The notes beneath the pieces are model-generated. The model was not told where the DNA came from. It saw only the letters and a list, made by a program, of their open reading frames with translations, and ran no database searches. A program made the position numbers and the translations under genes. This document shows positions 2,319-28,729 of a stretch of DNA of 64,000 nt, one piece after another; positions within the stretch are counted from its first letter, which is position 1, and every line of letters starts with the position of its first letter. Source of the DNA: an uncultured Actinomycetota bacterium (GTDB lineage Bacteria; Actinomycetota; Actinomycetes; DATJPE01); assembly GCA_963820065.1 (NCBI GenBank), contig CAWFYM010000002.1:27103-91102 (forward strand), in the 5' to 3' direction.

Positions 2319-4799
2319 TCAGCAGAGGAGGCGCTCGCCAGCGGGGTCGAGCAGCGGTTGGTCGGAGACGACAGCGCGCCGTCGTTCGCCGAGGATGCCG
2401 ATCGTCAGCTCCTTGCCGACCGTGGCGTGCTCGACGGGAAGGTAGGCAAGGGCGATCGACCGCTCGATGGTGTGCCCGTAGCCACCCGAGGAGACGTACG
2501 CAACGGGACGGGCGCCCTCGGCGTAGACGGGTTCGAGCCCGTGGGCGTCGACGTCCACGGCGTCGACGACGAGACAGGACAACACGTGGGTGCGGCCCGA
2601 GTCGTACTCACGGGACAAGGCGTCGCGGCCGATGAAATCGCCCTTGTCAAGAGCGACGAAGCGATCGAGCCCGGCCTGCAGTGGCGACCAATCGGCGGAA
2701 AGGTCCGCGCCCCACAGCCGGTAGCACTTCTCCAGGCGCATCGACTCCAGCGCTCGGTAGCCAAAATCCACGAGACCGAGATCCTCGCCGGCCTCGCGCA
2801 GCAGCTCGTACAGAGTCCGCTGCTGCTCGATCGGGTGGTGCAGCTCCCAGCCCAGCTCGCCCACATATGAGACCCGCATCGCGAGGACGCGTACGCGTCC
2901 GACCTCGACATGGCGTGCACAAAAGAAGCGGAATCCTTGGTTAGAGAAGTCGTCGCGCGACACTCGCTCCAGCAGCTCCCGCGACCTCGGCCCGGCGATG
3001 GTGAGGACGCCGTCGCGTGCCGTGACGTTGTCGATCCGCACTGATCCGTCACGCGGTGCGTGTTGTTCGATCCAGGCGAGGTCGTGCGTCTCGGTGGCGG
3101 CGGCCGACACCACGTAGTAGCGGCCAGGTTGGAGAAGCGCGACGGTGACGTCGGCCTCGACGCCTCCCCGTGCGGTGCACATCTGCGTCAGCGACATCTT
3201 TCCCACGTCGGTCGGCAACCGGTTCGCGCAGAGCCGGTCCAGGAAGGGCTCGGCGCCGTCCCCGCTGACGATGAACTTCGCAAAGCTCGTCTGATCCAGC
3301 ACCCCGACACCGCCGCGCACGGCACGGCACTCCTGTCCGACGGCGTCGAACCAGTTGCCGCGACCGAATGAATACTCGTCGCGGGCGGGACCGGTCGTCG
3401 CGAACCAGAGCGGGCGTTCCCAACCGGATCGCACGCCCATCACCGCGCCCTTGGCGACAAGGCGGTCGTACAGCGGGTCGGTCTTGAGGGGGCGCCCCGC
3501 AGGTCGCTCCTCCTCGGGAAAGTGGATCTTGTACTCGTCCTCGAACACCTCCGAGGCGCGTTCGACGGCATACGAGGTCGACCGTGCGTAGTCCCCGAAG
3601 CGACGGACGTCGAGCTCCCACATGTTCTCGCTCGGCTGGCCGTGCGCGATCCACTCTGCGCAGAACTTGCCTGCACCGCCGCCGAATACGATGCCGAAGA
3701 TCGAGAAGCCAGCAAGTACGTGGAGCCCCGGCTGACCCGGGATTGGACCCATCAGGCAACGTCCGTCGGGCGTGTATCCGTCGGGGCCATTGATCACGCT
3801 CTTGATCCCCACCTCGCCAAAGGAGGGGATCCGCTCGGCAGCCCCACCGAGGCAGTCCTCGATCTGCTCGAGGTTCGGCGGCAGGAGCCGGCTGTGGAAG
3901 TCCTCGGGGATCCCATCCAGCGCCCACGTGAGTGGGTTGCGCTCGAACGGCCCAACGAGCAAGCTGCTTCCCTCTTGGCGCGCGTAGAAGGAGTTGTCCG
4001 GGTCGCGAAAGACGGGTAGCTCGACCGACCGCGTCGCGATCGCGGGCATCGGGTCGGTTACCAGGTAGTGATGCTGCAGCGAAACGATCGGCAGCTCGAT
4101 GCCGGCAAGCCGGCCCACCTCGCGCGACCACTGCCCGGCCGCAATCACCACGTGCTCCGCCCTGATGTCGCCGGCGGGCGTCGACACCGTCCAGCCGCCG
4201 CCCTGGCGGACGAGCTGGGTGACCGGTGCGTGTCGGAGAATGGTCGCGCCCCGGTCCACAGCTCCCTTGGCGAGGGCGTTCGTCAGGCTCGTCGGATCTA
4301 TGTGGCCGTCGGTCGGGAGATAGGCGGCTGCGAGGACTCCATCGGGCCGGGCGAGCGGGAACAGCTCGTAGGCCCGCTCGGGGGAGAGAATTTCAAACGG
4401 AACCCCCACGTTCTCGGCGATCCCCCGCACCTGTTCGAACTGATGGACCCGGTCGCGAGTCGTGGCTATCCGGACGCTGCCGCACTGGTGGAAGTCGACC
4501 GGAAGTCCTGTCTCCCGCTCAAGTGCTGAGTACAGCTCGACCGACGTGCGGAGCAAACGCATCAGGTTGTAGCTCTGGATGAATTGAGTGCAGAGGCCCG
4601 CAGCGTGCCAGGTCGACCCGCTGGTGAGTTCGTTCGCCTCCACGAGCGCGACGTCACTCCAGCCGAGCCGCGTGAGGTGGTAGAGCGTTGATACCCCTGC
4701 GATGCCGCCGCCCACGACGACGACGCGCGCCTCGGTGATCACGGTCGCTCTATGTCGATGCCGCCCACGCGATGTGCGACGCGGCGCCGCTCGGCCCAT
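2319..4799 (-). CDS. FAD-dependent oxidoreductase fused to a GcvT-type aminomethyltransferase domain (dimethylglycine/sarcosine dehydrogenase family)
   Basis: 826-aa ORF with an N-terminal VVVVGGGIAG dinucleotide-binding fold of DAO-type oxidases and a C-terminal GcvT-like half. An in-frame GTG at 4742 is a plausible alternative start. Confidence 0.85.
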   Translation of the reverse strand: MGRAAPRRTSRGRHRHRATVITEARVVVVGGGIAGVSTLYHLTRLGWSDVALVEANELTSGSTWHAAGLCTQFIQSYNLMRLLRTSVELYSALERETGLPVDFHQCGSVRIATTRDRVHQFEQVRGIAENVGVPFEILSPERAYELFPLARPDGVLAAAYLPTDGHIDPTSLTNALAKGAVDRGATILRHAPVTQLVRQGGGWTVSTPAGDIRAEHVVIAAGQWSREVGRLAGIELPIVSLQHHYLVTDPMPAIATRSVELPVFRDPDNSFYARQEGSSLLVGPFERNPLTWALDGIPEDFHSRLLPPNLEQIEDCLGGAAERIPSFGEVGIKSVINGPDGYTPDGRCLMGPIPGQPGLHVLAGFSIFGIVFGGGAGKFCAEWIAHGQPSENMWELDVRRFGDYARSTSYAVERASEVFEDEYKIHFPEEERPAGRPLKTDPLYDRLVAKGAVMGVRSGWERPLWFATTGPARDEYSFGRGNWFDAVGQECRAVRGGVGVLDQTSFAKFIVSGDGAEPFLDRLCANRLPTDVGKMSLTQMCTARGGVEADVTVALLQPGRYYVVSAAATETHDLAWIEQHAPRDGSVRIDNVTARDGVLTIAGPRSRELLERVSRDDFSNQGFRFFCARHVEVGRVRVLAMRVSYVGELGWELHHPIEQQRTLYELLREAGEDLGLVDFGYRALESMRLEKCYRLWGADLSADWSPLQAGLDRFVALDKGDFIGRDALSREYDSGRTHVLSCLVVDAVDVDAHGLEPVYAEGARPVAYVSSGGYGHTIERSIALAYLPVEHATVGKELTIGILGERRRAVVSDQPLLDPAGERLLC

Positions 4800-21820: not shown

Positions 21821-22842
21821 ATAGCGCCCTGCGGAATCTGCTGAGTGACGCAGTGCGGGCCGCCGCCTCCGTAGGCCAGGGCGTCCCCTGGAACGCCCAC
21901 GATCTCGCGGTCCGGGTAGATCTCCTGAAGTCGCGCCAGCGCGGGGCCGTCGGTTGCTCCTCCCGAGACAGGGACGATCACGCCACCATTGGGCAGGTAG
22001 TGGTTGGCGTAGGACACCTTTGGGTCAGGTCCGGGGTCGATCAAAGAAACGTCGATCGCGCGACCCTCGGCGTCGGTTGCTGCCCTCAAGGCCGCCAGAT
22101 TGTCGTGTGCAGGCTGGTAGTCGGGCCCATTCCGGTCCGAGGTCACCTCGAGCAGAACCCGCCCGGGGGCGAGGTATTGGGCCACCCCGTCCACGTGACC
22201 ATCGGTGCCCTCCGGGCCAACGTCCAGCACGTGCCCGTGCGGCAGCCACACGATCGTGCGCACCCCCAGGTAGGCGCGCAGGATCTGTTCGATCTGCTCC
22301 CGGTTGAGCTGCCCGTTGCGATTGGGGTTGAGCAGGCATTGCTCGGTGGTCAGAAGTGTTCCCTCCCCGTCGACGAAGAAAGCACCGCCTTCCAGCACCA
22401 TCGGAGCGGTGAAGACGGGCAACCCAAGCTCCTCGGCCACCCGGGTCGCGAGCCGGGCGTCATCGTCATGCGGTTCCCAACGGCCGCCCCAGGCGTTGAA
22501 CCCGAACTGAACCACCGCCGACTGTCCGCTCGGGTCGCAGACAAAGATCGGCCCGCTGTCCCTGGCCCAGGAGTCGTTGATCGGGATCTCCAGTGGATCG
22601 ACCCCGTGTCCGCACCGACGACGAACGTCGGCGGCATCCCCGGGGTTGCACACCATCAGGACGGGTTCGAACGCGGCGATGGCTGATGCGACGGTCGCGT
22701 AGTCCTGCTTGGCGTCGTCGAAGCGGGGGCCCCAGAGCTGCTTGCGAGCCGGCCACGCCATCAGGCAGCCCGCATGCGGAGCCCACTCGGCCGGCATCGA
22801 AAAGCCCTGGGAGATCGGCGTCTCAGGCAGGTGATTCGCCAC
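21817..22842 (-). CDS. aguA: Agmatine deiminase
   Basis: AAGGAGG then GTG at 22842. Motifs PAEWAPHAGCLMAWP, NDSWARDSGPIFV, GTDGHVDG and the catalytic-Cys tail GGGGPHCVTQQIP. Confidence 0.85.
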   Translation of the reverse strand: MANHLPETPISQGFSMPAEWAPHAGCLMAWPARKQLWGPRFDDAKQDYATVASAIAAFEPVLMVCNPGDAADVRRRCGHGVDPLEIPINDSWARDSGPIFVCDPSGQSAVVQFGFNAWGGRWEPHDDDARLATRVAEELGLPVFTAPMVLEGGAFFVDGEGTLLTTEQCLLNPNRNGQLNREQIEQILRAYLGVRTIVWLPHGHVLDVGPEGTDGHVDGVAQYLAPGRVLLEVTSDRNGPDYQPAHDNLAALRAATDAEGRAIDVSLIDPGPDPKVSYANHYLPNGGVIVPVSGGATDGPALARLQEIYPDREIVGVPGDALAYGGGGPHCVTQQIPQGAM

Positions 22843-22898
22843 TCGTCCTCCTTTGACTGGGGGTCGCTGCCTTCACTATATTGGATGAAAACCAAAGT

Positions 22899-22916
22899 TC
22901 TCCTGTCATCAGGAGA
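22899..22916. promoter_or_regulatory. Inverted repeat in the aguA / urease divergent promoter region
   Basis: TCTCCTG-tcat-CAGGAGA inside the only AT-rich stretch of the intergenic region, with a TATATT hexamer at 22877. Confidence 0.35.
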
Positions 22917-22941
22917 TCCACCTTCGGCCGACAGGGTGCGG

Positions 22942-23580
22942 ATGAACCTGGGACCCACGGAGCTCGCGCGCCTGCTGGTCTTCCAGGTCGCCGAGATGGC
23001 CCGGCGAAACCGTGCTGCGGGGCTCAGCCTCAACGCCCCGGAGGCCATCGCCATCGCCTGCGACGAGATGCATGTGGCGGCGCGCGCTGGGGCGAGCTTT
23101 GAGGAGGTTCACCGAGCTGGGTATCGCTCAGTGACTCCGGACGACCTCATGGAGGGTGTTGCCGATCTGATCAGCGAGATCAGGTTGGAGGTTCTGCTGG
23201 CTGAGGGAAGCCGCCTCATCGTGCTGCGTGATCTCGGCAGGGCCGAGGAGCTGGACGAGCCAGCGGCGCCGAGGAGGGCGGACGCTGCCCCCGGCGCCAC
23301 ACGGCTAGGCGACGGCGCGATCACTTTGAACGCGGGGCTCGGTGTCGTCGAGATCGAGGTGCACAACACGTCCGACCATCTCGTTCGGGTGTCGTCCCAC
23401 TTTCCCTTTGACCGAGTGCAGGCCCGCCTGGTGTTCGATCGCGAGGTTGCCGCCGAGTGCCGGCTCGACATCCCGGCCGGAGACACAGTCCGGTGGGGGC
23501 CGGGCGAGACGAAGACGGTGCGCCTGGTTCGCATCTCCACAGCGCACATCGATGACACCGATTCTGAAGCGGGTGCTTGA
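22942..23580 (+). CDS. ureAB: Urease gamma-beta fusion subunit
   Basis: MNLGPTELARLLVFQVAEMARRNRAAGLSLNAPEAIAI (gamma) is joined to ITLNAGLGVVEIEVHNTSDHLVRVSSHFPF (beta) in one 212-aa ORF. Confidence 0.9.
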   Translation: MNLGPTELARLLVFQVAEMARRNRAAGLSLNAPEAIAIACDEMHVAARAGASFEEVHRAGYRSVTPDDLMEGVADLISEIRLEVLLAEGSRLIVLRDLGRAEELDEPAAPRRADAAPGATRLGDGAITLNAGLGVVEIEVHNTSDHLVRVSSHFPFDRVQARLVFDREVAAECRLDIPAGDTVRWGPGETKTVRLVRISTAHIDDTDSEAGA

Positions 23581-25295
23581 TGTCGATCCAGATGTCGCGT
23601 CACGAATACAACGCTCGCTACGGACCCACGACCGGCGACGAGGTGCGTCTCGCCGACACCGACCTCTGGGTCACCGTCGAGGATGACCATGTGGGATTCG
23701 GGGACGAGCCGCTGTGGGGCTACGGGAAAAACATCCGGTCACGGATGACGCAGTCCGATCACGCCACCGCCGAGAGCGAGCTCGATGTCGTCGTGGCCGG
23801 GGTGCTGGTCGTCGATCCCTACCTCGGCGTTGTGAAGACCAACATTGGGATCAAGGATGGCCGGATCGTCGGTATCGGCCGTGCGGGCAGTCCAGATCTG
23901 ACCTCCGGCGTCGACATGATCATCGGCCCGAACACGTTGCCGATCATGGGGTACGGGCTGATCGCCACTGCGGGCGGCGTGGACAGCCACGTGCACCTCA
24001 TCACTCCCACGTTGGTCCCGTCGGCGCTTTCGGCTGGAGTCACGACGCTCATTACCGCGGGGTTCGAGGAACCTCCCATGGCGATGGGGATCACCCTGAG
24101 GGCGTTCGAACACTTGCCCCTCAACATCGGGTTGCAGGCCAGCGCGCGCACGGACGTCCCGAGCTCGGCCGACCGCGTGATAGCGGCAGGAGCCGTCGGC
24201 CTGAAGATTCACGAGGATTGGGGGGCCTACCCGGAGGTCATCGACTCGACCCTCCAGCAAGCCGAGGATCACGACATCGCCGTGAGCATGCATACCGACT
24301 CCCTGAACGAATCAGCTGAACTGGCTGAGACGATCGAGGCCATCGGTGGCCGCGCCGTCCACGCGTACCACGTCGAAGGAGCTGGCGGCGGCCACATCCC
24401 TGACGTCATGGGGCTGGTGGCCGAGCCGAACATCATCTGCTCGTCGACGACACCGACCGTGCCGTACGGAACGGCGACGGCTGCCGAGCACCGAGAGATG
24501 ATCCTGGCCGTTCACGGCGGGAACCCGTCGGTCCCGGCTGATGTTGCTGCCGCTGATGAGCGGGTGCGCGAGACCACTATGGCCGCGGAAGGACCCTTGC
24601 ATGAGCTGGGTGCCATCTCCATCGTCAACAGCGATTCCCAGGGGATGGGCAGGATCGGCGAGACCGTGCGAAGGACCTTTCAGCTGGCCCATCACATGAA
24701 GGCGTGGAGCGCCAGCGCGGACGCCGAGGGGCTCCCGGTGCAGGCGCCGGGGGATGGTCGCGACCACCGTGGGACGGACAACCGGCGGGTGTTGAAGTAC
24801 CTCGCAAAGATCACGGCCGAGCCGGCGCTCGTGCACGGGATAGCCGAGGAGGTCGGATCACTCCGTCCCGGACGACAGGCCGACATCGTGCTGTGGGAGC
24901 CCTCCGCATTCGGGGTGAAGCCTTTGCTCGTCCTCAAGGCCGGCCACTTCGCCTGGGGGGCGGTCGGCGAAGGCAACGCGTCCATCGAGGGGTGCCAACC
25001 GGTCTTGACTCGCGGCCACTGGGCGGCGATGGGAACCGCGCCGAGCACGGTTGGGACGACGTTCGTCTCCCAGTCCGCGCTGGACGGGGGGATCAAGTCT
25101 GAGCTATCGAGCGGCCGGCGCTTCGTCGCCGTTTCGGGGACCCGTGAGGTTCGTCGAGAGTCAATGCTGTGGAACACGATGACACCCAAGGTGCGCGTCG
25201 ACCCTGGAGACGGATCCGTCTGGCTGGGGGATCGATCTCTGACCTCACGCCCTGCAAGCCAGGTGCCGTTGAACCGCCGGTACTTCTTGCACTAG
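23580..25295 (+). CDS. ureC: Urease alpha (catalytic) subunit
   Basis: ATG at 23580 overlaps the ureAB stop (TGATG). All nickel-site motifs are present: GGVDSHVHL, GLKIHEDWG, MHTDSLNES, YHVEGAGGGHIPD and NSDSQGMGRIGE. Confidence 0.95.
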   Translation: MSIQMSRHEYNARYGPTTGDEVRLADTDLWVTVEDDHVGFGDEPLWGYGKNIRSRMTQSDHATAESELDVVVAGVLVVDPYLGVVKTNIGIKDGRIVGIGRAGSPDLTSGVDMIIGPNTLPIMGYGLIATAGGVDSHVHLITPTLVPSALSAGVTTLITAGFEEPPMAMGITLRAFEHLPLNIGLQASARTDVPSSADRVIAAGAVGLKIHEDWGAYPEVIDSTLQQAEDHDIAVSMHTDSLNESAELAETIEAIGGRAVHAYHVEGAGGGHIPDVMGLVAEPNIICSSTTPTVPYGTATAAEHREMILAVHGGNPSVPADVAAADERVRETTMAAEGPLHELGAISIVNSDSQGMGRIGETVRRTFQLAHHMKAWSASADAEGLPVQAPGDGRDHRGTDNRRVLKYLAKITAEPALVHGIAEEVGSLRPGRQADIVLWEPSAFGVKPLLVLKAGHFAWGAVGEGNASIEGCQPVLTRGHWAAMGTAPSTVGTTFVSQSALDGGIKSELSSGRRFVAVSGTREVRRESMLWNTMTPKVRVDPGDGSVWLGDRSLTSRPASQVPLNRRYFLH

Positions 25296-25338
25296 TCGAA
25301 GCTCGGCGCGCCAGCCCGTCCGGTGGTGACCACGACCA

Positions 25339-25354
25339 ATACCCCCTGGGGTAT
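25339..25354. promoter_or_regulatory. 16-bp palindrome ATACCCC-ct-GGGGTAT, candidate operator (copy 1)
   Basis: 7-2-7 perfect inverted repeat 34 nt upstream of the ATG at 25388. It is near-identical to the site at 26349. Confidence 0.5.
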
Positions 25355-25387
25355 AGTGGTCGCACGTCCATCTCGGGAGGTTCCCCC

Positions 25388-25504
25388 ATGTGTAGTCCCG
25401 CTCTCTGCTCGGCGTGCCGCAAGGTGACGTACTCCGGTTGTGGCATGCACGTCGACCAGGTCCTGGCGAGTGTCCCGGTCGACAAGCGCTGTACCTGTCG
25501 CTGA
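25388..25504 (+). CDS. 38-aa cysteine-rich small protein
   Basis: GGGAGG then 7 nt then ATG. Sequence MCSPALCSACRKVTYSGCGMHVDQVLASVPVDKRCTCR has 6 Cys. The stop lies 9 nt before the sigma gene start. Confidence 0.55.
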   Translation: MCSPALCSACRKVTYSGCGMHVDQVLASVPVDKRCTCR

Positions 25505-25513
25505 AACGCTCAC

Positions 25514-26326
25514 GTGGACCGCACCGAGCTGAGTGGTCAGTTAGCCGAGCAGGCTCCAGGACTGCTGCGCTACGCGCGCAGCATCACCTCGGACCCTCGC
25601 CGGGCCGAGGATCTCGTGCAGGACACGCTGGTCCGGGCACTCGAACGCTGCAACTCTTTCCGGGGTGAGTCCTCGCTGGCGACCTGGCTGCATCGCATCC
25701 TGCACAACCTCGCGGTCGACCAGGGGCGACGAAGAGGTGAGGTCCCTACCGACCTGACTGCAGACTCGGAGGCAGAGCGTGTCGAGACGCTCTGGCGCAA
25801 CGACTCCTACACGGTCGACTCCGCCCTCATCCTGGAGCGTGCACAGACGTCTGAGCGACTGCAGGACGCACTGCTCCGTCTGCCCTTGATCTACCGCTCG
25901 GCCGTCGTCCTGCATGACGAAGAGGGGCTGGTCATGTCCGATGTCGCGCAGATCCAGGACATCGGCCTCCCAGCTGCGAAGCAACGACTGCGTCGCGGCA
26001 GGATGATGCTGGTCAGTGAACTTGCCGCTGACCAGAGCCGAGTTGGGTCACCGGCTACGTCGATGCGGTGCTGGGACGCCCGGCACCGCGTGTCGGACTA
26101 TATGGACGAAGAGCTGACCCAACGGGACCGGTCCCTTCTCGAGGCCCATCTGGAGAGCTGCCCGATGTGCCCGCCCCTGTACGCCGGGCTCGTCGGCGCC
26201 CGAGACGCGCTAGGGGCCAGGCGAGACTCCGACGCGGTCGTGCCCACCCATCTTGCGGAACGGATCACTCGCTCGGAAGCTCCCTCGCCGGGTCCCAGGA
26301 CGTCTTCGGCGTCGACCGAGGAATAG
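25514..26326 (+). CDS. ECF sigma factor with a C-terminally fused ZAS (zf-HC2) anti-sigma domain
   Basis: Region 2 (DLVQDTLVRALER...ATWLHRILHNLAVDQGRRR) and region 4 (YRSAVVLHDEEGLVMSDVAQIQDIGLPAAKQRLRRGR). These are followed by CWDARHRVSDYMDEEL...EAHLESCPMC, which is C-x25-H-x3-C-x2-C. Confidence 0.8.
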   Translation: MDRTELSGQLAEQAPGLLRYARSITSDPRRAEDLVQDTLVRALERCNSFRGESSLATWLHRILHNLAVDQGRRRGEVPTDLTADSEAERVETLWRNDSYTVDSALILERAQTSERLQDALLRLPLIYRSAVVLHDEEGLVMSDVAQIQDIGLPAAKQRLRRGRMMLVSELAADQSRVGSPATSMRCWDARHRVSDYMDEELTQRDRSLLEAHLESCPMCPPLYAGLVGARDALGARRDSDAVVPTHLAERITRSEAPSPGPRTSSASTEE

Positions 26327-26348
26327 ACGTCCGTCTCGGTTGGTTGCA

Positions 26349-26364
26349 ATACCCATAGGGGTAT
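26349..26364. promoter_or_regulatory. 16-bp palindrome ATACCC-atag-GGGTAT, candidate operator (copy 2)
   Basis: It lies 30 nt upstream of the thioredoxin ATG. The 19-nt context CAATACCCATAGGGGTATA matches CAATACCCCCTGGGGTATA at 25337 in 16 of 19 positions. Confidence 0.5.
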
Positions 26365-26393
26365 ACCGGCCCACGATCATCAAGGATGTGACC

Positions 26394-26786
26394 ATGGCTA
26401 CCGTCGCACTGACCGCCAACACCTTCGAGACCGCCGTGCTCGACAACGACATCGTGCTCGTCGACTTCTGGGCGGCCTGGTGTGGCCCGTGCCGTCAGTT
26501 CGCGCCGGTGTTCGAGGCCGCCTCCGACTCGCACCCGGACATTGTCTTCGGCAAGGTCGACACCGAGGCCGAGCAGGGACTGGCTGGTGCGGCCGGCATC
26601 ACGTCGATCCCGACCCTGATGGCCTTCCGTGGCGGCATCCTGGTGTTCTCTCAGCCTGGCGCCCTTCCGGCGGCAGCCCTGCAGCAGGTCATCGACGGGG
26701 TCCGTGGCCTGGACATGGACGACGTCCGGCGGCAGGTCGCCGAGCAGTCAGCCGCGAACGCCGATGAGACCATGGCCCGGCCGTGA
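26394..26786 (+). CDS. trxA: Thioredoxin
   Basis: VLVDFWAAWCGPCRQFAPVFE with the WCGPC active site. 130 aa with a short C-terminal tail. Confidence 0.9.
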   Translation: MATVALTANTFETAVLDNDIVLVDFWAAWCGPCRQFAPVFEAASDSHPDIVFGKVDTEAEQGLAGAAGITSIPTLMAFRGGILVFSQPGALPAAALQQVIDGVRGLDMDDVRRQVAEQSAANADETMARP

Positions 26787-27190
26787 CGTACGGCAACACG
26801 GTCGTCCTGGACCAGCCGTTCGAGGATGCCGTCGCGGCGGTGCGGGGCGCGCTGTCCGATCAGGGCTTCGGGGTCCTCACTGAGATAGACGTACAGGCGA
26901 CGATGAAGACCAAACTGGACGCAGACCTCGAGCCGTATCTGATCCTCGGCGCCTGTAACCCACCGCTCGCCTACCAGGCGCTGCAGGCGGAGCCCTCCGC
27001 TGGCCTGCTCCTGCCGTGCAACGTCATCGTCCGCCAGACCGAGCAGGGCACCGTCGTGGAAGTCATCGACCCGATGACCATGGTTAGCGTCTCCGGGAAC
27101 CCAGTTCTGCAGCCCGTCGTCGACGAGGCGGCCAGCAGGCTGAACGCAGTGCTCGCGGCCTTGGTGCCCGTGGCTACGCCTGCGGCATGA
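26783..27190 (+). CDS. DUF302-domain protein
   Basis: GTG at 26783 overlaps the trx stop (GTGA). Family-typical motifs FGVLTEIDVQATMKTKL...YLILGACNP and LLLPCNVIV. Confidence 0.85.
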   Translation: MTYGNTVVLDQPFEDAVAAVRGALSDQGFGVLTEIDVQATMKTKLDADLEPYLILGACNPPLAYQALQAEPSAGLLLPCNVIVRQTEQGTVVEVIDPMTMVSVSGNPVLQPVVDEAASRLNAVLAALVPVATPAA

Positions 27191-27394
27191 CTGACAACGC
27201 AGACGTGCCCGCCTAGAGAACCGCTCACGTCAGAGGCTCACCTTGGTGGCTCCACCGGCTCCGACCTCCGCCATGAAAGTCAGTTCAAGTCTGCCTCGCC
27301 GGGACCAGGTGGCGTTTTCGACGTCTCCGAGGGAAGTCTCAGCGGTGGCTGTCTTAGATCGGCGCGGTCGCTCCGGCCGCGCATACTTGGGCCC

Positions 27395-28729
27395 GTGGTT
27401 GCGGATCCGCGTCGGTCGGCCGCGTTCCGGTCTGCCCGGATCGCCTCCCTGGTGGCGGGACTGGCAGCCCGGTCATCGACGACTGCTCTCCGCGCCAGGT
27501 TCGCCGACGACCCCGCCGGACTGCGTCGCAGGTCTCGTGCCCGAAACGCCGATTCGCTCCGCACCACTTTGGGCGGGATGAAGGGCGGGGCGCTCAAGGC
27601 CGGCCAGTTGCTCTCGACGGTCGACTCGCTGTTTCCTCCGGATCCTGACCACATGTGGACCGAGGCTCTAACGACACTGCAGGAGACGAACCCACCTCTG
27701 GAGTGGCCACAGGTGGAGCCGGTCTTGCGACGGGGCCTGGGCGCCGAGTGGCGTGACTCGCTTGTTGAGATCGATCCCGTCGCGGTGGCTGCGGCGTCGA
27801 TCGGTCAGGTGCATCGCGGGACCTGGCGCGACGGGCGGGAGGTCGCCGTGAAGGTGCAGTACCCCTTCGCGAAGGAGGTCCTCCTCGCCGATCTGCGCGC
27901 CCTGTCCGTGTCCCTCCGGCTTGCCGGAGCAGTCCTGCCCGGGCTGCTCGCGGCGCCGGTCGTGGACGAGCTGCGACTGCGGGCCGGGGAGGAGCTCGAC
28001 TATGTCCATGAGGCGCGGGCGCAGCGTGAGGTCGCGGCAGCCTTTGCAGGCTCCAACGAGTACGCAGTCCCCGACGTCGTGGCAGCTGCGGACGGGGTCC
28101 TCGTCAGCGAGTGGCTTCAGGGTCGTCCGCTCGTCACGGCCGTCGGTGACTCGGAGGAAGAACGTCGTCGGATTGCGGCGCTCTACCAGGGATTCGCGCT
28201 GCTGGCACCTGCCCGTGCGGGCTGGTTGCATGCCGATCCGCACCCTGGCAACTTCCGGATCACCCCGGACGGTCGCCTTGGTGTGCTCGACTTCGGGGCC
28301 GTCGTCGCGATGCCCGACGGTCTACCCCAGGCGTTCGGCCGACTTGTGCGTGCCTTCGCCGACGAGTCCGCCCCCGGTGAAGCGGAGTCGGCGCTTCTCT
28401 CAGCTGGGTTGATCAGGCCAGGGCGTCGGGTCGACATCGAGAGCCTGCGAGCGGTCATGTCGCCGTTCAGTGAGCCCGCCCGCCACGAGGCGTTCGCGTT
28501 CTCGTCGTCATGGTTGCGTTCGTGCTTTGCTCGCGACGACGCCGCTCGCGACCCCGACTACACCGCGGCGATGGGGCTCACACTGCCGGCAGAACATCTC
28601 ATGACCCAGCGGGTCTGGCTCGGGGTGATCGGGGTGCTCTGCCGCCTCGATGTCACTGTGCCTGTACGCCCCGTCCTGTGCGACCTACTGCCCGGGTTCG
28701 ATGCAGTTGGCGGACTTGAGGACTCGTAA
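27395..28729 (+). CDS. ABC1/UbiB-family atypical kinase
   Basis: GGALKAGQLLS, AAASIGQVHRGTWRDGREVAVKVQYP and HADPHPGNF. The start codon is uncertain. Confidence 0.85.
   Translation: MVADPRRSAAFRSARIASLVAGLAARSSTTALRARFADDPAGLRRRSRARNADSLRTTLGGMKGGALKAGQLLSTVDSLFPPDPDHMWTEALTTLQETNPPLEWPQVEPVLRRGLGAEWRDSLVEIDPVAVAAASIGQVHRGTWRDGREVAVKVQYPFAKEVLLADLRALSVSLRLAGAVLPGLLAAPVVDELRLRAGEELDYVHEARAQREVAAAFAGSNEYAVPDVVAAADGVLVSEWLQGRPLVTAVGDSEEERRRIAALYQGFALLAPARAGWLHADPHPGNFRITPDGRLGVLDFGAVVAMPDGLPQAFGRLVRAFADESAPGEAESALLSAGLIRPGRRVDIESLRAVMSPFSEPARHEAFAFSSSWLRSCFARDDAARDPDYTAAMGLTLPAEHLMTQRVWLGVIGVLCRLDVTVPVRPVLCDLLPGFDAVGGLEDS

Follow-up and report, generated by a model that had tools for sequence, protein, structure and literature searches.

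A soluble single-polypeptide ECF sigma/ZAS anti-sigma fusion in an uncultured Actinomycetota bacterium and its link to putative reactive-sulfur-species islands

The fusion gene and its domains

We have analysed a 64,000-nucleotide stretch of DNA from an uncultured Actinomycetota bacterium (GenBank assembly GCA_963820065.1, contig CAWFYM010000002.1), which is called the window here, and in particular a gene that joins an extracytoplasmic function (ECF) sigma factor and a zinc anti-sigma (ZAS) domain in one polypeptide. An earlier sequence-only reading of this DNA, made without database searches, had drawn attention to this gene. Its features are as follows.

25514..26326, + strand: ECF sigma/ZAS anti-sigma fusion gene, 270 amino acids (aa), GTG start, 813 nt uninterrupted (open reading frame list, Pfam, NCBIfam, homologues)
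25553..25738, + strand: sigma region 2, residues 14-75 (PF04542, Sigma70_r2, E 3e-15)
25853..26011, + strand: sigma region 4, residues 114-166 (PF08281, Sigma70_r4_2, E 6e-8)
26012..26068, + strand: linker, residues 167-185, comprising the C-terminal part of the region-4 helix, some 10 residues of low conservation and Met184 (predicted secondary structure and a dip in prediction confidence)
26063-26065, + strand: codon of Met184 within the linker (column 184 not conserved)
26069..26278, + strand: soluble ZAS, or class-I-like anti-sigma, domain, residues 186-255, four predicted helices (PF13490, ligand conservation, RsrA alignment)
26069-71, 26147-49, 26159-61 and 26168-70, + strand: codons of the ZAS ligands C186, H212, C216 and C219

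All three Pfam matches of the fusion protein exceeded the gathering scores, including the zf-HC2 match (PF13490) at residues 188-217 (E 1.1e-7, 32.3 bits against a threshold of 22.2), and the sequence-only reading was right to place sigma-70 regions 2 and 4 in one open reading frame (ORF) of 270 aa. Neither sigma region 1 nor region 3 was matched in the Pfam scan. In the NCBIfam scan, the protein scored 69.4 bits with the sigma70-ECF model TIGR02937 (cutoff 42.9), fitted the ECF superfamily and passed no equivalog model. With regions 2 and 4 only and a superfamily score above the cutoff, the fusion protein is an ECF (group 4) sigma factor. The LPAAKQRLRRGRMMLV segment of region 4 was almost invariant in alignments of the sigma-ZAS family.

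The only Cys and His residues of the extension are C186, H191, H212, C216, C219 and H246, and its motif reads exactly C-x25-H-x3-C-x2-C, while sigma region 4 contains no Cys. When the extension was compared with residues 11-75 of S. coelicolor RsrA by BLASTP (27% identity over 66 aa, E 6e-5; RsrA query verified against PDB 5frf_A), C186, H212, C216 and C219 aligned on C11, H37, C41 and C44 of RsrA, as expected for the complete ZAS motif with RsrA ligand spacing that had been read from the letters. The helix-4 segment VPxxLxxR[IV] also aligned. The extension has no transmembrane (TM) helix, in agreement with the same reading, since its Kyte-Doolittle mean over 19 residues peaks at 0.71.

The structure of the full fusion protein was predicted with AlphaFold2 (AF2) from an alignment of 83 sequences, and the model had a mean predicted local distance difference test score (pLDDT) of 81.6. 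In the extension, the model showed helices at residues 186-197, 203-215, 220-235 and 245-255 (pLDDT 70-92), and this predicted four-helix arrangement is consistent with the class-I anti-sigma-domain fold, in which a three-helix bundle is joined by a fourth helix. The linker of about 20 aa that had been claimed was present, but the region-4 helix reaches residue 176 in the model, and the unstructured part covers about 10 residues (177-185). The closest solved sigma factor was M. tuberculosis SigH (E 9e-16, about 30% identity), and SigH and SigE were the best matches in both the Foldseek and the PDB sequence searches. With the extension as the sole query, the PDB sequence search yielded no more than a marginal match to RslA (E 0.098).

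Conservation of the fusion

Judged from its homologues, the soluble single-polypeptide sigma-ZAS fusion is genuine and conserved. Sigma domains were combined with zf-HC2 in all of the 120 best homologue clusters (58-86% identity, about 250-275 aa in most), and at the DNA level the frame was continuous in the related loci L001-L018 and L081-L094. The 18 genome loci with a continuous frame belonged to Actinomycetota (Cellulomonas, Dermatophilaceae, Micrococcales, Acidimicrobiia and Microthrix) and to metagenome-assembled genomes (MAGs) of Chloroflexia and Gemmatimonadales. At the read level, where the evidence consisted of low-depth metagenome contigs from four runs, an independent contig (run X2) covered positions 25929-26151 with one non-synonymous difference, no indel and no stop. 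Accordingly, neither the orthologues nor the X2 contig contained a stop codon or frameshift between region 4 and the ZAS domain.

The sequence-only reading had also staked its proposal on the conservation of the ZAS part, and this was borne out. The ligands C186, H212, C216 and C219 were invariant in 83/83 sequences; the ZAS segment was among the best-conserved parts of the protein in alignments of 20 and 83 members, and the CPPLY motif that follows was invariant too. When the window gene was compared with those of L086, L089 and L082, the ratio of nonsynonymous to synonymous substitution rates (dN/dS) was 0.14-0.18 for the whole gene and 0.16-0.20 for the ZAS part alone, values that indicate purifying selection on both halves, sigma and ZAS. 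On the other hand, the in-frame Met that had been noted exactly where a separate anti-sigma factor would start appears to be a coincidence: of the 83 sequences, 43 have Met and 40 have Leu in column 184, and no Shine-Dalgarno sequence or ribosome-binding site lies ahead of Met184.

We searched the extension alone against 1.8 billion representative proteins and obtained 238 matches at E <= 0.001, including 51 at E <= 1e-10. Its nearest relatives in this set were fused proteins or pieces of fused proteins. Many of the short matches start with MLVSALA..., which lies inside region 4, and others start with MRCWD.... One short entry, P0161 (contig L091), was checked at the DNA level, and its frame was open up to the contig edge. 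Because of this open frame and of the MLVSALA starts inside region 4, we consider that the short entries are truncated calls of fused genes. A stand-alone soluble ZAS protein was also found (P0190, 78 aa, L092 3001-3237, 43% identical to the fused domain); its gene comes after a lipoprotein gene, no sigma gene lies upstream, and the contig ends 84 nt downstream, beyond which a sigma gene may lie. In addition, two independent assemblies carried a sigma-ZAS-rhodanese triple fusion (P0014, 405 aa, with 73% identity to the window protein; L093 5001-6218 and L094 624-1841). This fusion looks like the result of stop-codon loss, since rhodanese is the next gene in sister loci.

Gene context in relatives

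In the family, a DUF2892 gene was located upstream of the sigma-ZAS gene on the same strand in 24/24 loci, against 0/61 unfused ECF loci in the same scan. It encodes a small YgaP-like membrane protein of two helices, whose CP[LI]Y motif holds a conserved Cys, and the sigma operon of the relatives starts with this gene throughout. The unfused loci were proteobacterial (L020-L080) and had been considered as ECF285-like candidates with a DUF2892 neighbour; they were rejected, as none of the 61 had one. In four family loci (L011, L012, L013 and L016), a thioredoxin-like membrane protein is encoded between the DUF2892 and sigma-ZAS genes. This inserted protein has a CxxC motif and a C-terminal membrane segment, lies within the same promoter-driven operon and was seen in Acidimicrobiia/Microthrix-type and Gemmatimonadales loci.

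In at least 18 loci, which came from Actinomycetota and from Chloroflexia and Gemmatimonadales MAGs, the DUF2892 gene was preceded by an ECF-type promoter motif, (T)GTATCC-N16-CGTC, whose spacer was invariant at 16 nt across the operon-proximal sites. Matches with spacers of 14, 15, 17 and 18 nt also occurred in the relatives and were taken as chance, considering that the operon-proximal sites all had exactly 16 nt. From this placement, the motif is expected to be the autoregulatory promoter of the sigma operon. In L002, which carries two complete DUF2892/sigma-ZAS modules, we observed a third GTATCC-N16-CGTC copy (4397-4426, - strand) before an apparently decayed DUF2892 frame, which is followed by a gene for a secreted protein of unknown family.

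The relatives also showed a second type of context. Operators of the form ATACCC-N4-GGGTAT occurred 3-8 times per related locus (10-20 kb). In Pengzhenrongella phosphoraccumulans (L081), whose sigma protein is 65% identical to that of the window, a CsoR-family repressor gene, a thioredoxin gene and a YgaP-like/DUF2892 gene are followed by the sigma-ZAS gene, and the island further contains genes for TauE, a metallo-beta-lactamase-rhodanese (CstB-like), a CoA-disulfide-reductase-rhodanese, a rhodanese, TusA and DsrE. The L081 repressor has Cys35, Gly60 and Cys64 and lacks the Cu(I)-ligand His. A CsoR-family repressor without this His is the signature of CstR (PMC8643695). Genes for cstR were also present in L086, L089, L090 and L093, and similar sulfur islands surrounded the sigma-ZAS gene in L001, L003, L009 and L010, while SulP permeases were encoded in L005 and L014. 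A persulfide-dioxygenase-rhodanese fusion was among the island genes of the relatives. The closest relatives (80-86% identity; L082, L086 and L088-90) carried, in this order, genes for DUF2892, a 38-aa ORF, sigma-ZAS, rhodanese, TauE, thioredoxin, DUF302 and CstR. These neighbours in the relatives, namely CstR, rhodaneses, persulfide dioxygenase, TauE and TusA/DsrE, suggest that the fusion is connected with reactive sulfur species rather than with generic disulfide stress.

The locus in the window

The following features surround the fusion gene in the window.

25339..25354, no strand: CsoR/CstR-family operator palindrome ATACCCCCTGGGGTAT, overlapping a TATAGT -10-like hexamer, about 35 nt upstream of the 38-aa ORF
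25388..25504, + strand: gene for a 38-aa Cys-rich peptide, 6 Cys and 1 His, MCSPALCSACRKVTYSGCGMHVDQVLASVPVDKRCTCR, GGGAGG ribosome-binding site
26349..26364, no strand: second CsoR/CstR-family operator ATACCCATAGGGGTAT, 30 nt upstream of the thioredoxin gene
26394..26786, + strand: thioredoxin, 130 aa, WCGPC (PF00085, E 8e-25; TIGR01068, 98.6 bits against a cutoff of 96.8)
26783..27190, + strand: DUF302 protein gene (PF03625, E 7e-26), overlapping the thioredoxin stop (GTGA)

The two palindromes have the form ATACCC-N4-GGGTAT, which is a G/C-tract pseudo-palindrome of the CsoR-family type, and we regard them as candidate operators; for comparison, the cst operator of S. mitis is ATACCCTTATGGGGTAT (PMC8643695). 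Exactly two TACCC-N4-GGGTA matches (25340 and 26350) were found in the whole window, on either side of the sigma gene, and operators of the same type occupy the equivalent place in L082, L086 and L089.

The stop of the 38-aa ORF sits 9 nt ahead of the sigma start, and the two genes are probably co-transcribed. Homologues of the peptide were found in 10 loci. The peptide is 100% identical in amino-acid sequence in L088-L090, against about 81% for the adjacent sigma protein, and a CstR-type operator lay directly upstream of its ORF wherever the position was checked (the window, L001, L010, L082, L086 and L089). No Pfam or NCBIfam family matched the peptide, which could serve the island as a small protein that binds metal or sulfur.

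The thioredoxin gene starts 67 nt past the sigma-ZAS stop, so that the sequence-only reading had located it correctly as following immediately. Its product and the island thioredoxin of L081 share 75% identity. The pairing of the thioredoxin and DUF302 genes is common to L089 and L090, and the GTGA overlap between them suggests translational coupling. However, the suggestion, implied by naming it a classic SigR-regulon product, that thioredoxin is among the targets of this sigma factor was not supported: both in the window and in the relatives, no ECF-type promoter precedes the thioredoxin gene, and a CsoR/CstR-family operator is found there instead. We have accordingly marked the gene as a putative part of a CstR-type regulon and not as a target of this sigma factor. 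A scan of positions 25100-27500 for consensus sigma-70 promoters and terminators found nothing.

When the window was compared with its close relatives (L082, L086 and L089), homology was limited to two blocks, 25333-26287, which begins at the first operator and extends through the sigma gene, and 26320-27164, which comprises the second operator, the thioredoxin gene and the DUF302 gene. The DUF2892 gene is absent from the window, and urease genes adjoin the first operator instead. The rhodanese-TauE segment and the genes for sulfurtransferase, persulfide dioxygenase and TauE are absent as well, and no cstR or csoR gene was found in the 64 kb, where a putative ABC1-kinase gene comes after the DUF302 gene. 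A position-weight scan of the 64 kb for the ECF promoter gave nothing above 8, against 27-38 for true sites. The junction between ureC and the operator was reproduced in an independent run (X3 contig). On this comparison, the window locus is best described as a mosaic remnant, that is, a reduced version of the island. Since the breakpoints lie at or beside the repeated operators, deletion or recombination between operators is suggested. The promoter overlapped by the operator, with its TATAGT -10-like hexamer, probably drives joint transcription of the 38-aa ORF and the window sigma gene, and the sigma targets of this copy, if any, probably lie outside the 64 kb. Either the genome encodes a CstR-type repressor outside the window, or the operator promoters of the window are now unrepressed.

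As a side observation, the ORF of 444 aa at 27395-28729 (+ strand), which looks like an ABC1/UbiB-type kinase by eye, sits where the relatives carry cstR.

Proposed mechanism and alternative explanations

On the basis of what we observed, namely the architecture and its conservation, the neighbouring genes, the motifs of promoters and operators, and the deletions, we propose that the fusion protein is a cis-inhibited ECF sigma switch in one polypeptide that responds to thiols or sulfane sulfur. We consider this proposal modestly probable, with zinc binding, cis inhibition, trigger and regulon as its predicted elements. In the reduced, zinc-loaded state, the ZAS domain would fold onto regions 2 and 4 of its own chain and block the binding of RNA polymerase. 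Oxidation or persulfidation of the ligand cysteines would then release zinc and the sigma part, and the released sigma would transcribe from GTATCC-N16-CGTC promoters. Such a promoter would drive the DUF2892-led operon of the sigma factor itself, usually inside a CstR-controlled detoxification island. The likely signal would be reactive sulfur species, or thiol stress caused by them, and the sigma factor would form a second regulatory tier alongside CstR. The sequence-only reading had proposed a self-contained, cis-inhibited thiol-redox switch; the conserved soluble fusion agrees with this, and a thiol switch acting in cis would be the most economical explanation, but the context points to reactive sulfur rather than to generic disulfide stress.

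Several points weigh against this proposal. The AF2 model had a predicted template modelling (pTM) score of 0.38, the relative placement of its domains was without confidence, and no confident intramolecular docking was obtained. A Foldseek search of the PDB with the fusion model returned ECF sigma chains only. About half of the family loci have no sulfur genes within 5 kb, and the link to sulfur is thus frequent and not universal. The DUF2892 partner and the ECF promoter are missing from the window, where the gene may have become a functional orphan. Insensitivity to redox is common among ZAS domains, and on this point the sequence cannot decide. The DUF2892 partner might also be the regulator itself, given that DUF2892 at position -1 was put forward as a novel anti-sigma factor for ECF285 (Casas-Pastor et al. 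supplement).

A more specific form of the proposal is that the fused ZAS cysteines sense sulfane sulfur (persulfide or polysulfide) directly, together with the Cys-bearing DUF2892 protein, and that the sigma factor with its own promoter class acts as a feed-forward tier on CstR. This would be an undescribed type of one-component sigma factor, and we hold it as a tentative possibility that we would not expect to be the case.

It is unlikely, in our view, that the fused ZAS domain acts in cis as a constitutive anti-sigma domain that does not respond to redox and has a structural zinc, in which case the sensor would be DUF2892 or another partner, or a cytoplasmic protease would remove the extension. 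DUF2892 is the sole universally linked gene and has its conserved Cys in CP[LI]Y, and the ECF285 proposal points in the same direction. Nevertheless, the window and its lineage keep an intact sigma-ZAS gene under purifying selection even though DUF2892 is absent here, and both the ligand spacing and the flanking residues match those of redox-active RsrA. As for proteolysis, proteolytic activation is the model proposed for ECF48, ECF52 and ECF53 (PMC8999054), but the extension described here has no membrane anchor, which makes regulated intramembrane proteolysis inapplicable.

The window gene itself could be an orphaned remnant of a partly deleted island, perhaps expressed from the CstR-type promoter, without a cognate promoter and heading to loss. 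Compared with relatives at 80-86% identity, the locus lacks DUF2892, the ECF promoter, rhodanese-TauE and cstR, the homology begins and ends at operators, and the best promoter-like score in the window stayed at or below 8. We consider this explanation rather improbable, however, as the ORF is intact with all ligands kept, the whole-gene dN/dS given above shows no relaxation (although it is averaged over the whole divergence), and the arrangement was seen in the independent X3 contig. Also, the promoter search covered the 64 kb of the genome that form the window.

Alternatively, the Cys/His extension could be a positive, ligand-dependent module like that of CorE or CorE2, so that a metal (Zn, Cu or Cd) would be needed for activity and the protein would be a metal sensor. 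A similar proposal exists for the Cys-rich extensions of ECF238, ECF287 and ECF288 (PMC8999054); moreover, the operator type is shared with Cu-sensing CsoR, and a cation-efflux gene and a P-type ATPase gene lie near some relatives. This role seems quite improbable to us, considering that the extension is a full four-helix, RsrA-homologous ZAS domain rather than a short Cys-rich tail, that the island regulator lacks the Cu-ligand His, and that the islands hold sulfurtransferases and persulfide dioxygenase rather than metal efflux.

Finally, an assembly or sequencing artefact, or separate production of the ZAS part from Met184 to give two ordinary products, is essentially refuted: an in-frame ATG does lie two codons before the first zinc ligand and one stand-alone relative of 78 aa exists (L092), but more than 100 homologue clusters and at least 24 loci have an uninterrupted frame, position 184 is so often Leu and has no Shine-Dalgarno sequence, the X2 contig spans the junction, and, among the short database entries, the one checked at the DNA level (P0161) has a frame open to the contig edge and others start within region 4.

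Comparison with known systems

The system resembles SigR-RsrA of S. coelicolor and SigH-RshA of M. tuberculosis (ECF12) in that an ECF sigma factor is combined with a soluble ZAS domain of the C-x25-H-x3-C-x2-C type and a thioredoxin gene lies nearby. However, the SigH_actino model TIGR02947 gave 58.5 bits against a cutoff of 251.55, so that the fusion sigma is not a SigR/SigH orthologue. Unlike in SigR-RsrA, the anti-sigma part lies in the same polypeptide, encoded by a single ORF in the window and in the relatives, and not in a separate downstream gene. The promoter class also differs, as the family promoter is GTATCC-N16-CGTC and not GGAAT-N18-GTT, and the thioredoxin gene of the window stands behind a CstR-type operator only. 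With three defining features lacking, the sigma-ZAS protein would work like SigR-RsrA but is, on these comparisons, no member of that group, and the parallel with SigR-RsrA drawn in the sequence-only reading does not, given the model score and the promoter class, make it a SigR/SigH-type system.

Among the ways in which ECF sigma factors are controlled, fused regulatory extensions rank second in frequency (PMC7826278). In Actinobacteria, a zinc finger is fused to the sigma factors of groups ECF48, ECF52 and ECF53, in most cases together with TM helices (PMC8999054), and ECF48s2 has a short soluble zinc-finger extension of about 60 aa, with no conserved context or promoter given for ECF48 (Casas-Pastor et al. 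supplement). Compared by description only, the window protein is like ECF48s2, since both are actinobacterial and have a soluble C-terminal zf-HC2 extension, which here covers about 85-100 aa against about 60. It is unlike ECF48s1, ECF48s3, ECF48s4, ECF52 and ECF53, which have TM helices and long extracytoplasmic parts. The family also departs from ECF48 as described in having DUF2892 in 24/24 loci and an invariant promoter in at least 18. The suggestion that fused extensions had been catalogued while a soluble sigma-ZAS fusion was uncharacterised held in part: the soluble type is already catalogued as ECF48s2, while the absence of an experimental characterisation stands.

With the proteobacterial ECF285, the family shares a gene for a two-TM DUF2892 protein immediately upstream (-1) of the sigma gene, but ECF285 has no fused ZAS domain and a predicted promoter AA-Xn-CCTCT. 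ECF287 was considered and rejected: it has an extension of about 80 aa with an unknown domain, two Cys in region 4, a TetR/MerR and alpha/beta-hydrolase context and a -35 element TCG, whereas no region-4 Cys and a different context and promoter were found here. In ECF41 (SigJ) and in the CorE-type ECF238, a C-terminal extension likewise modulates the sigma factor in cis without a separate anti-sigma factor; it is, however, a SnoaL-like domain or a Cys-rich tail of about 20 aa and not an anti-sigma domain.

The islands of the relatives resemble the cst operons of S. aureus, E. faecalis and streptococci, on the one hand in the CsoR-family repressor without the Cu-ligand His and in the ATACCC...GGGTAT operators, and on the other hand in their genes for rhodaneses, persulfide-dioxygenase-rhodanese, CoA-disulfide-reductase-rhodanese and TauE. 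The window differs from cst operons in that it holds only the operators, thioredoxin and DUF302, with no cstR. To our knowledge, the described cst systems include no sigma factor, and ZAS anti-sigma factors, which are textbook examples of thiol switches in Actinobacteria, have been studied throughout as systems of two proteins. In a literature search, we found no paper that links an ECF sigma factor to DUF2892 in this sense, or to CstR or persulfide sensing. Accordingly, while the sigma-ZAS protein is catalogued at the level of domain architecture, what becomes newly visible in the gene neighbourhoods is its putative link to reactive-sulfur-species islands.

The CstR-type islands, the rhodanese fusion, the DUF2892 partner and the defined promoter together tie ECF signalling to the sensing of reactive sulfur species. 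A soluble, covalent sigma-ZAS protein would be a minimal system of fixed stoichiometry for studying the coupling between the release of zinc and that of sigma, and it could serve as a compact synthetic redox or persulfide switch. For such purposes, the window copy is a natural partner-less variant, which is useful yet not the best model of the system.

Adjacent urease genes

The urease genes upstream of the locus lie at 22774-25295 (+ strand). One of their ORFs, with translations judged by eye, seems to join a UreA-like (gamma) and a UreB-like (beta) part. It is followed by ureC, with stop and start overlapping.

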